Shown: positions 1 to 3,000 of the stretch, one piece after another | Numbering within the stretch: position 1 is the stretch's first letter | Layout: each line of letters opens with the position of its first letter | Source: a virus | Lineage: Duplodnaviria > Heunggongvirae > Uroviricota > Caudoviricetes | Reading direction: 5' to 3' (one strand) | Virus record (IMG/VR): IMGVR_UViG_2512047041_000009 | Location: 1 to 37,224 of that record | DNA: 37,224 nucleotides | Program-made: the position numbers

Positions 1-3000
1 ACCCGCAAACCACACTTCCCTTTAAAACGCGTAACATACATTGCTTGCGTTTAACTTTCTTTGAACTCTTGCAGAAAAATGAGAATTCGTGAGTACGATC
101 ACTCAAAATCGCCTGGCAAAAATAAAATCACCCTATAGATGCACAAAAAACGGGCAAAACTACCTGGTTCGCAAAACTGCGTCTAAAGTTAAACTGGGAC
201 CTCGCGAGCAAGGGTGAGACGATGGCGCTTTACACAATTGGTGAAGTGGCGTTGCTTTGTGATATTAACCCTGTCACGTTATCAATATGTCCGGCCACAC
301 CATTCAGCACGCCGGAGAGCGTTTTCGTCGAGCCGCTGGCCTCATTCACACCGCCCACCCAGGCCATAAAGGCGTTTTCCACCTTTGTGATACTACCGGA
401 AACCGTTTCCGGCATGGCCGCATATTCATCACGTAATATCCCCAGCTGGCTGATTAACGCGGGGACCACTTTATCCGCTGTCAGTTTTCCGTCATCCGCC
501 ATTGCCTTCAGATCTTTACGGGCCACACCCATCCCCGCAGCAAGCGCGCGGATCACCCGGTCGCCATTTTCGTTAACAGCATTAAATTCTTCGCCACGCA
601 GTACACCCTGTGCCAGTGCCTGGCTGAACTGGGTGATCACCGAACCGGATTCCGCAACTCCAGCCCCTGACAGTTTCAGTCCTGTCGAAATGGCCTCCGT
701 CACCTTCAGCACATCATCAGCACTGTAACCATATTCACGCATCGAGGCAGCCGAACGGGCAAACAGGGCCGCATTATCCGAAAACGCGGTACCTGTCCGC
801 TGACTGATATCCATCAGCACTTTCTGTGATGACGAAAATTCAACGGATGACTGCGACGCCTGTTTCAGACGGGCATTTACGGAACTCCACTCATCCGCCA
901 GTGAAATCAGGTGTCCGGTGGCAAAGGCACCGGCAAATGCGCCAGCCACTCCGACAGCAGAACCGCGAATTTCCGTCAACTGGCTGTTCAGCTCAGCCAG
1001 GGCGCGTCGCTGCTCCCGGGCGACTGCGGCAGCCTGACGCCCGCCATTCTGCAGGGTCCGGTAATATTCACTGCCCATGCGGGAAGCCCGCTGGATCTCC
1101 GACTGGAATGACTGCGAATTTGCCGAAATTTTGATAATCAGTTCACGTAACGTCGCCATTCACCTTTCTCCGGACGAAAAAAAACCGCCTCAGCGGTTCT
1201 CATCATTTATGACTGTGCAGCAAGGCTCAGCGCGTCTTCCAGTCCCGCAAAAGGATCCGCTTCCGGCTTGTCCTCATCCTCGCCCCAGCAGAGCATGGCG
1301 TCCTTCAGTGAAACATTCATCCCCTGCGCCCCGAAAACCGCTTTCACGATCTGCGCATTACGGATATCCCCGCGCTCATCGCCCAGCGGGGACACCCTGT
1401 CGAACTCCATCCACATCATCGCCTCGCTCGCACTCAGACTGTGGCGCAGTTCGGATAAGGTGCGCCCCAGACGGAGCGCAAGTCGCATCAGAAAGCGAAT
1501 TTCCGGGCGGGCTACTTTTTTCTTGCCGACTCAGCATCGGTGATCAGTTCCAGTGCCTGACGCAGCAACCGGGCATGCACCGGACCATAGACAGCCAGCA
1601 CCTGCTCGCGATCATCTGCGGTGAACACACGTTTCATGTCCTTATCACACAGAACATCACAGAACAACGTCACATCCGCCTCCAGGTTACGGCGGGTTTT
1701 TGCCACCACCGACAGGGTATCGTCACCCGCATCATCGCCATTAAGAACTTCCCGCCAAAGATACCAGGCCTCTGCCGAAGGCTCGCGCAGCACCACGCTG
1801 ACATTCCCCCATTCCGGCACCTTCACCGTTTTATGACGAAATCCGGACAGTCTGGCCAGCGCCAGTGTTTTCAGATCTTTTGCCATCGGATTATCCTTAT
1901 CAACCTGCGCCATTTACCGTTACCGTGCACGCGTCAGAGGTAATTCTCTGCGGCTGTTCTGCAGAATCCGTTACCATGCAGGTATAAGCCCCCTTATCAC
2001 CTGACTGCGTATTGGCTTTACTGAAAGTGTCAGTAGTCTGTCCCTCGACCGGCTGACCATCCTTCTTCCAGGCGTATTTATAAGGCGGCGTTCCCCCGTT
2101 GACACTGACTGACATTGTCAGCAGCGCACCGGTATTCACGGTAAGCTTCGCCTCCGGCTTTTTAACAAACGCCAGCGGTACCACATAGGACACCGGTTTG
2201 CCTTTCAGACGCAGTGAAAACGTTGCTGCCACCACGCCGTTGGTACCGGATGACCAAGTGTGCTGACGCACTTCCGCCAGGAACTTAAAGCCCTTACCGG
2301 ACGGAAACTGCACCTTAAACGCATACAACGAGTCATTGTCATAGGCATCACGCAGGGCGTTCTGGGCCTGATTCAGATAAAAATTACCCGACATGGAAAT
2401 CTCAGACGACGCCCCCAGACCGTTGATGTTCTCCTGCTCTGTGGAGCAGAGCGTGGTCACATCAATATCCTGTTTCTGACCGGCGGTGAACTGGACTTCC
2501 TTGATGGTGCAGTCCAGGCGCAGATATTCCGCCTTATCCATAGTTTCAGCAGTCGCCGGGGCAGATGAAATCATCACCTGCGTCAGCTGTGAGCGTTCAT
2601 ACAAAGCAGACATTCTGCCTCCTGATAATAAAAAACCCGCACGCGGCGGGGTATGGGTTTTGTAGAAAAAAAGAAAAAGTCACACCGTGACCTGAAACTC
2701 CAGGGTTGCACGGTAACAGCGGTTTTCCGGAATATAGTTCTGCATTTCACTGACCGATTCCGGGGCCAGCGACATGATGGACTCACGGGCCTGCTGACGT
2801 ATCTGACGCGCCTGTGTGACCGTCACCGCATAAACGTCAATCTGCACCGACACCGATGACTCTGCCTGTCCGCCCATCACGTCCGCAGACACCGATGAAA
2901 TCAGGCTGAAAACCACCCACGGTAACGATACAGAGGGTCTGCCATCCTGCAGGGGAACCACATACGGATACGCCTGCCCTCCCGCAAGATGCGCCAGATG

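Follow-up and report, generated by a model that had tools for sequence, protein, structure and literature searches.

A lambdoid prophage residing in mlrA of Escherichia coli has lost its distal tail genes by a 12,848-bp deletion, and the truncated tape-measure ORF at one end of the prophage is the boundary of that deletion. The window, by which we mean the entire 37,224-nt stretch analyzed here (IMG/VR record IMGVR_UViG_2512047041_000009), carries the deletion joint near its left end, and one endpoint of the deletion falls inside the 21-bp common core of the prophage attachment site. This position of the endpoint suggests that the phage integrase was responsible, and we lean toward a reading in which the prophage disabled itself, its own integrase having recombined the int-distal att with a pseudo-att in the tape-measure gene, excising the distal tail module and destroying the att site.

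Host DNA and a truncated tape-measure gene at the left end of the window

The first 281 nt of the window are E. coli chromosome, with matches in 5,425 of 5,426 complete E. coli genomes, the best at 100% identity. In strain ATCC 11775 the match starts right after btsS (CDS end at locus position 1500), with mlrA starting at locus position 1722, and position 1 of the window is the base adjoining the btsS start codon. The mlrA ATG lies at position 222; identity to the intact mlrA of ATCC 11775 holds through position 281 and is lost from 282, where the phage DNA starts. The host/phage junction, 281/282, is located within the 309-codon ORF (Table 1). A preliminary description of this DNA had suspected a host junction in or just beyond positions 1 to 229 and had proposed comparison of the left end with host genomes; host DNA does occur about there, but all of 1 to 281 is host and the junction lies inside the ORF.

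The minus-strand, tape-measure-like ORF of 309 codons noted in that description was recovered as such, with a match to Pfam TMP_3 (PF20155) over residues 83 to 273 (E = 3.4e-57). Its ATG occupies 1159-1157 in the ORF listing; the TAA, earlier given as 229-227, was found three nucleotides away at 232-230, and the minus-strand translation of 1-232 opens with a stop codon. ORF residues 1 to 295 are the N terminus of an intact 1088-aa homolog in E. coli AR_0013, and the C-terminal 14 residues, TGLISQSNATSPIV, derive from mlrA read in antisense. The phage-derived part shares 99.8% identity with the AR_0013 tape-measure gene. Whereas the AR_0013 protein contains the domains TMP_3, Phage_HK97_TLTM and Tape_meas_lam_C, the latter two were not found by Pfam in the 309-codon product, in which 295 of 1088 residues remain; the ORF is a truncated remnant of the tape-measure family, without functional membership. 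Between the end of the ORF and the window edge, all three minus-strand frames contain stops, in agreement with the earlier view of this segment as non-coding, but on the plus strand positions 222 to 281 are the first 20 codons of mlrA. Two tail assembly chaperone genes upstream of the tape-measure gene, G-like and T-like, are undamaged, so the late operon is whole up to the break.

Table 1. Features of the window that bear on the deletion
Feature	Position	Strand	Details
btsS-mlrA intergenic region, with mlrA upstream/promoter region	1..221	+	host match
mlrA (yehV), first 20 codons, MALYTIGEVALLCDINPVTL	222..281	+	severed from the rest of the gene; ATCC 11775 comparison
Left 13 bp of the att core, CCCTGTCACGTTA	269..281	.	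right 8 bp and adjoining phage arm missing
TTA common to both parental sequences	279..281	.	first 3 nt of the predicted 7-bp spacer
Chimeric ORF, pseudogene remnant	230..1159	-	309 codons plus TAA; 295 tape-measure residues and 14 antisense-mlrA residues
Phage-derived 5' part of the tail tape-measure gene	282..1159	-	878 nt; N-terminal 27% of the 1088-aa protein
Tail assembly chaperone gene, T-like	1207..1488	-	intact; Pfam Phage_tail_T, E = 1.9e-19; AR_0013 annotation
Tail assembly chaperone gene, G-like	1512..1913	-	intact; Pfam Phage_TAC_1, E = 2.5e-58; AR_0013 annotation
Additional A, frameshifting the gene for the terminase large subunit	9632	-	alignment to Stx1a phage LC744187
Excisionase gene	35650..35904	+	intact; Pfam DUF1233 putative excisionase, E = 2e-29; xisR in AR_0013
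Tyrosine integrase gene	35938..37224	+	intact, 428 aa; Pfam Arm-DNA-bind_2 and Phage_integrase

The joint also creates an ORF on the plus strand (222..728, 168 codons), in which mlrA codons 1 to 20 run in frame with 148 antisense tape-measure codons. It adjoins the native upstream region of mlrA and is without a match in Pfam; it is probably a by-product without meaning. Antisense transcription from the mlrA promoter would enter the tail operon. A promoter and terminator scan of positions 1 to 1300 gave nothing above the shuffled expectation. The sequence AAAAAAACCGCCnnAGCGGTTC is present in two copies, at 1178-1199 just upstream of the tape-measure start and at 8900-8921 just upstream of a protease-capsid fusion gene; on the minus strand each copy is a GC hairpin followed by a T-run and is terminator-like, and the copy at 1178-1199 went unreported by the simple terminator scan.

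An intact sister prophage defines the extent of the deletion

E. coli AR_0013 (NZ_CP032204.1, 4815300-4865320) harbors the same prophage in mlrA, with its two att core copies exactly 50,000 bp apart and a tape-measure protein of 1088 aa. The window is collinear with this prophage at approximately 99.9% identity across 36.9 kb, save for a gap of 12,848 bp, which confirms the earlier proposal of a deletion boundary beyond which the distal tail genes have been removed. From the tape-measure gene to mlrA, AR_0013 encodes M, L, K (a C40 peptidase), I, J, Lom, a tail fiber, two hypothetical proteins and a DinI-like protein; the window lacks all ten of these genes, in full, together with 793 codons of the tape measure. 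Both prophages have the same mlrA insertion site, the same 21-bp core and the same +1 frameshift in the terminase gene, and int and xis are the same in both (100% identity over 35000-37224); AR_0013, unlike the window, retains the 12,848 bp and the full-length tape measure. Further differences amount to a 3-bp indel, a 6-bp indel and about 15 single-nucleotide polymorphisms (SNPs) outside a repeat, of which AR_0013 has one 162-bp unit more than the window (4603-5217) in the ORF that follows the portal gene. With an intact sister this close in sequence, the decay is very recent, and one event can be retraced at base-pair resolution.

The repeat region 4603-5217 belongs to a minus-strand ORF (4149..5372, 407 aa) that shares an ATGA with the end of the portal gene and has no Pfam match above threshold; it consists of three tandem 162-nt units encoding 54-aa repeats that are 80 to 88% identical. 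The portal ORF itself (5369..6733, 454 aa) is a complete match to Phage_portal, and in AR_0013 the repeat region carries the PGAP label of a "frameshifted" portal.

The deletion ends within the attachment core

Comparison of both AR_0013 junctions with the unoccupied attB of ATCC 11775 yields a common core of 21 bp, CCCTGTCACGTTACGCGCGTG, and the left deletion endpoint lies inside it. In the phage direction the core sequence runs on into ...CGTGAC, and attP would contain a perfect 6-bp inverted repeat about a 7-bp non-palindromic spacer, GTCACG-TTACGCG-CGTGAC. This dyad has the layout of classical core-type sites on either side of a tyrosine integrase's overlap region, putative roles that are assigned by symmetry alone. 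The breakpoint was placed in register by aligning the window with both parental sequences from AR_0013, namely its left junction and its tape-measure site. The crossover occurred between position 278 (G, the mlrA allele) and position 282 (T, the tape-measure allele): the window junction reads GTCACG-TTA-TCAATATGTC, and the parental tape-measure site reads GCCACA-TTA-TCAATATGTC. With the spacer placed by dyad symmetry, the crossover is confined to the TTA beside the predicted cleavage position. Microhomology at the junction comprises the perfect TTA, or CACGTTA versus CACATTA with 6 of 7 positions matching.

The window ends with the int stop codon, at the prophage end opposite the deletion. In AR_0013 the second core copy is situated about 36 bp past the end of the identical int gene, and the window's own second copy would lie about 36 bp past its right edge. 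The preliminary description had suggested a search for direct repeats between the left end and the sequence beyond int; such a repeat exists, namely the 21-bp core with its second copy after int in AR_0013, but no direct repeat of the core was found within the window, since the window ends before the right att. As in an mlrA-integrating lambdoid prophage, the mlrA junction is at the att core, with mlrA codons 1 to 20 and 13 of the 21 core bp present, and int and xis are found next to one att end, as expected of such a prophage. Int has an arm-binding and a catalytic domain, i.e., it is heterobivalent, and both Int and Xis are intact.

Integrase action and microhomology as possible routes to the deletion

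From the breakpoint in the core, at the first 3 nt of the presumed overlap, we infer that the deletion was initiated by the integrase. A left endpoint placed at random over the approximately 12.8 kb of dispensable DNA would fall in the 21-bp core with a chance of about 0.16%, and in the 7-bp spacer with a chance of about 0.05%. The position of the breakpoint in the att core favors the integrase over a random microhomology deletion, and integrase-initiated recombination between att and a pseudo-site is, in our judgment, probable, the dependence on integrase being read from where the breakpoint lies.

The sequence of events may have been as follows. A lambdoid, Stx1a-phage-like prophage of about 50 kb would have integrated in mlrA codons 17 to 23 at the 21-bp core, and an ancestor common to AR_0013 and the window would have lost packaging when its gene for the large terminase subunit acquired the +1 frameshift. 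One 12,848-bp deletion would then have followed in the window's own lineage, bringing the int-distal junction together with the tape-measure gene 878 nt from its start. The intact tyrosine integrase of the prophage is the putative initiator, acting on the att junction and on a weak pseudo-core in the tape-measure gene, GCCACA-TTATCAA-TATGTC, in direct orientation; the tail segment would have been excised as a circle and lost, and the remnant would be the 309-codon chimeric pseudogene running into antisense mlrA. We are fairly confident of this account as a whole, that is, mlrA integration, then terminase frameshift, then integrase-initiated deletion of 12,848 bp.

The partner site in the tape-measure gene, which is in direct orientation, matches the dyad at 10 of 19 positions (3 of 7 in the spacer, 4 of 6 and 3 of 6 in the arms). 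This places it in the top 0.9% of prophage positions, 436 of which score as high or higher, and 20 positions in the prophage combine TTA with at least 4 of 6 matches to the left arm. The tape-measure site is accordingly not the closest counterpart of the core in this prophage, and a choice between mechanisms cannot be made on similarity. At four of its seven spacer positions the partner site differs from the core. In lambda, spacer heterology blocks the completion of Int recombination; with this degree of heterology, a non-canonical resolution by replication or by a host resolvase must be assumed. The integrase reading concerns a single event; among the matches listed for complete genomes with an interrupted attB, no second, independent deletion anchored in the core came to light.

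The same in situ deletion of 12.8 kb might also have been produced by integrase-independent illegitimate recombination at microhomology, i.e., replication slippage or end joining, with the endpoint in the core a coincidence. The perfect 3-bp TTA and the 6/7 match of CACGTTA to CACATTA are a typical residue of RecA-independent illegitimate deletion, the resemblance of the partner site to the core is unremarkable, and spacer heterology should impede a complete Int reaction, all of which would fit such an origin. However, the endpoint falls in a 21-bp target out of about 12.8 kb, or more if the host flank is counted (a chance of about 0.1 to 0.2%), and within that target it sits right at one end of the dyad's 7-bp spacer, a position at which cleavage by a tyrosine recombinase would be expected. 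Deletions of this class have endpoints unrelated to recombinase sites, whereas the left endpoint here is in the att core; we consider the microhomology route unlikely.

Initiation by the integrase would have precedents in lambda and HK022. Parkinson and Huskey, and Davis and Parkinson, both in 1971, reportedly described int-promoted deletions of lambda (b deletions) with one end at att. For HK022, a passage in PMC6379469 attributes to Dorgai et al. (1993) a prophage inversion between att and a secondary attachment site inside the prophage. The lambda b deletions, the HK022 inversion and the window have in common that one endpoint is in the att crossover region, that the other endpoint is in a phage-internal site of weak similarity and that a functional att is lost ("grounding"). 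The lambda and HK022 cases come from the laboratory, with int dependence demonstrated, whereas the window comes from a natural isolate in which int dependence is deduced from the breakpoint; the outcome in the window, unlike in those cases, is a deletion from the integrated state.

The terminase frameshift and the integrated state

The terminase large subunit gene of LC744187 is an uninterrupted frame of 556 codons, which the extra A at 9632 splits in the window into two minus-strand ORFs, 9619..10608 and 8946..9752. AR_0013 is identical to the window at this position, and PGAP calls its terminase gene "frameshifted". Since the frameshift is common to AR_0013, it predates the deletion; with packaging already lost before the deletion, the deletion is argued to have occurred in the integrated state and not in a free phage genome.

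In lambda, int-promoted deletions arise in free phage DNA by recombination of attP with a secondary site. Here, too, Int might have promoted the deletion between attP and a secondary site in free circular phage DNA, with the shortened genome integrating in mlrA afterwards, and the final sequence would be expected to be identical. Yet a phage without distal tail genes and already frameshifted in terminase would neither make nor enter virions without a helper, the hybrid att would bring a heterologous spacer to the integration reaction, and the near identity of both host flank and prophage to AR_0013 fits vertical descent. We regard an origin in free DNA as very improbable and retain integrase action on the integrated prophage as the preferred reading.

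The junction recurs in independent assemblies

The junction was absent from the 5,426 complete E. coli genomes, the 40-nt junction sequence was absent from the GTDB species representatives, and a generalized pattern (mlrA flank, CACGTTA, then any base other than C) was absent from the JGI metagenomes. It was located solely through an exact-protein look-up in the Logan assemblies, where the exact 309-aa chimeric product is found next to btsS/btsR on eight independently assembled contigs. Three of these, derived from runs ERR3862967, ERR3862969 and ERR3862977, contain an identical 40-nt junction and differ from the window by 1 to 3 SNPs; btsS, btsR and further host genes adjoin the junction. The recurrence on eight separately assembled contigs indicates that the junction is real and clone-specific, and the deletion is a rare, clone-specific allele. 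These contigs also provide the leftward extension that the preliminary description had called for, and they lead into btsS, btsR and more host genes; neither a continuation of the tape-measure frame nor further tail genes, which would have contradicted the proposed deletion, is present on them. A frameshift leading on into a full-length tape measure was rejected, given the stops in all three minus-strand frames and the host flank on the Logan contigs.

That an assembler wrongly joined the end of an mlrA contig to the end of a tape-measure contig, as the missing junction in complete genomes, GTDB representatives and JGI metagenomes might suggest, is scarcely credible and was rejected, because the 40-nt junction and the 309-aa product recur without change on eight Logan contigs, three of which come from three sequencing runs, and a 3- to 7-bp overlap is too short for such a mis-join.

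Relation to other lambdoid prophages

The cryptic prophages DLP12, Rac, Qin and e14 of E. coli K-12 are lambdoid, have their morphogenesis genes deleted and are fixed in the chromosome. Compared to these, the decay seen in the window is very recent, with an intact sister at 99.9% identity. The window represents ordinary prophage decay by known processes and a new allele, and no new kind of element; its distinctive detail, of moderate mechanistic interest, is that the deletion is anchored in the att core.

The mlrA gene is an integration site of Stx1 phages (PMC8112680). The Stx1a-converting and Sp15 (CP-933V) type prophages of STEC occupy mlrA (yehV), as the window does, and the terminase region of the window is 99.6% identical to that of Stx1a phages; in contrast to Stx1a-converting phages, the window has its tail end deleted and its int-distal att destroyed. 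The annotation of the AR_0013 prophage, 99.9% identical to the window, includes no genes for Shiga toxin; between Q and the lysis genes, the slot of stxA/stxB in Stx-converting phages, it lists an OmpC-like porin, tRNAs, a methyltransferase fragment, a TolA-like protein and a SASA esterase. Judged by this annotation, the prophage apparently lacks stx.

The backbone is otherwise Stx-phage-like. Rfam matches above the gathering score were obtained for STnc100 (18315-18523, minus strand) and the anti-stx2 small RNA AsxR (18259-18311, plus strand), as well as for the C4 antisense RNA (27968-28055, minus strand) and isrK (28077-28153, minus strand), the latter two adjoining genes for Rha-family regulators. 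Two prophage tRNA genes (19403-19561, minus strand), tRNA-Arg and tRNA-Ile in the AR_0013 annotation, lie downstream of the Q antiterminator region. The OmpC-like porin gene (20331..21473, plus strand; Pfam Porin_1, E = 8e-151) is oriented opposite to the surrounding late region.

Consequences for the prophage and for mlrA

At the hybrid site left by the deletion, the core has lost its right half, and the phage arm next to it is gone. With half of the core and one phage arm missing, excision of the prophage is no longer possible and mlrA cannot be restored; the prophage is locked in, tail-less and unable to package DNA. Because excision is impossible, the disruption of mlrA is permanent in this clone. 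PMC3874044 links the insertion of a prophage into mlrA to limited production of curli and biofilm.

The annotation of the left end is settled by these results: positions 1 to 281 are chromosome, the 309-codon ORF is a chimeric pseudogene and the prophage is without its distal tail genes. If the integrase did initiate the deletion, such "self-grounding" would be a route of prophage domestication beside random deletion, IS activity and homologous recombination between prophages; if it were general, att-anchored deletions would constitute a predictable and searchable signature of prophage fixation.

The attB in mlrA is uninterrupted in 4,944 of the 5,426 complete E. coli genomes and interrupted in about 480 (about 9%). 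In the same survey, mlrA is split into two separate pieces in 454 records. At least one genome, that of strain 99-3311 (NZ_CP101310.1), yielded only the 5' piece of mlrA with the full core, a pattern suggestive of larger deletions or rearrangements on the side near int.
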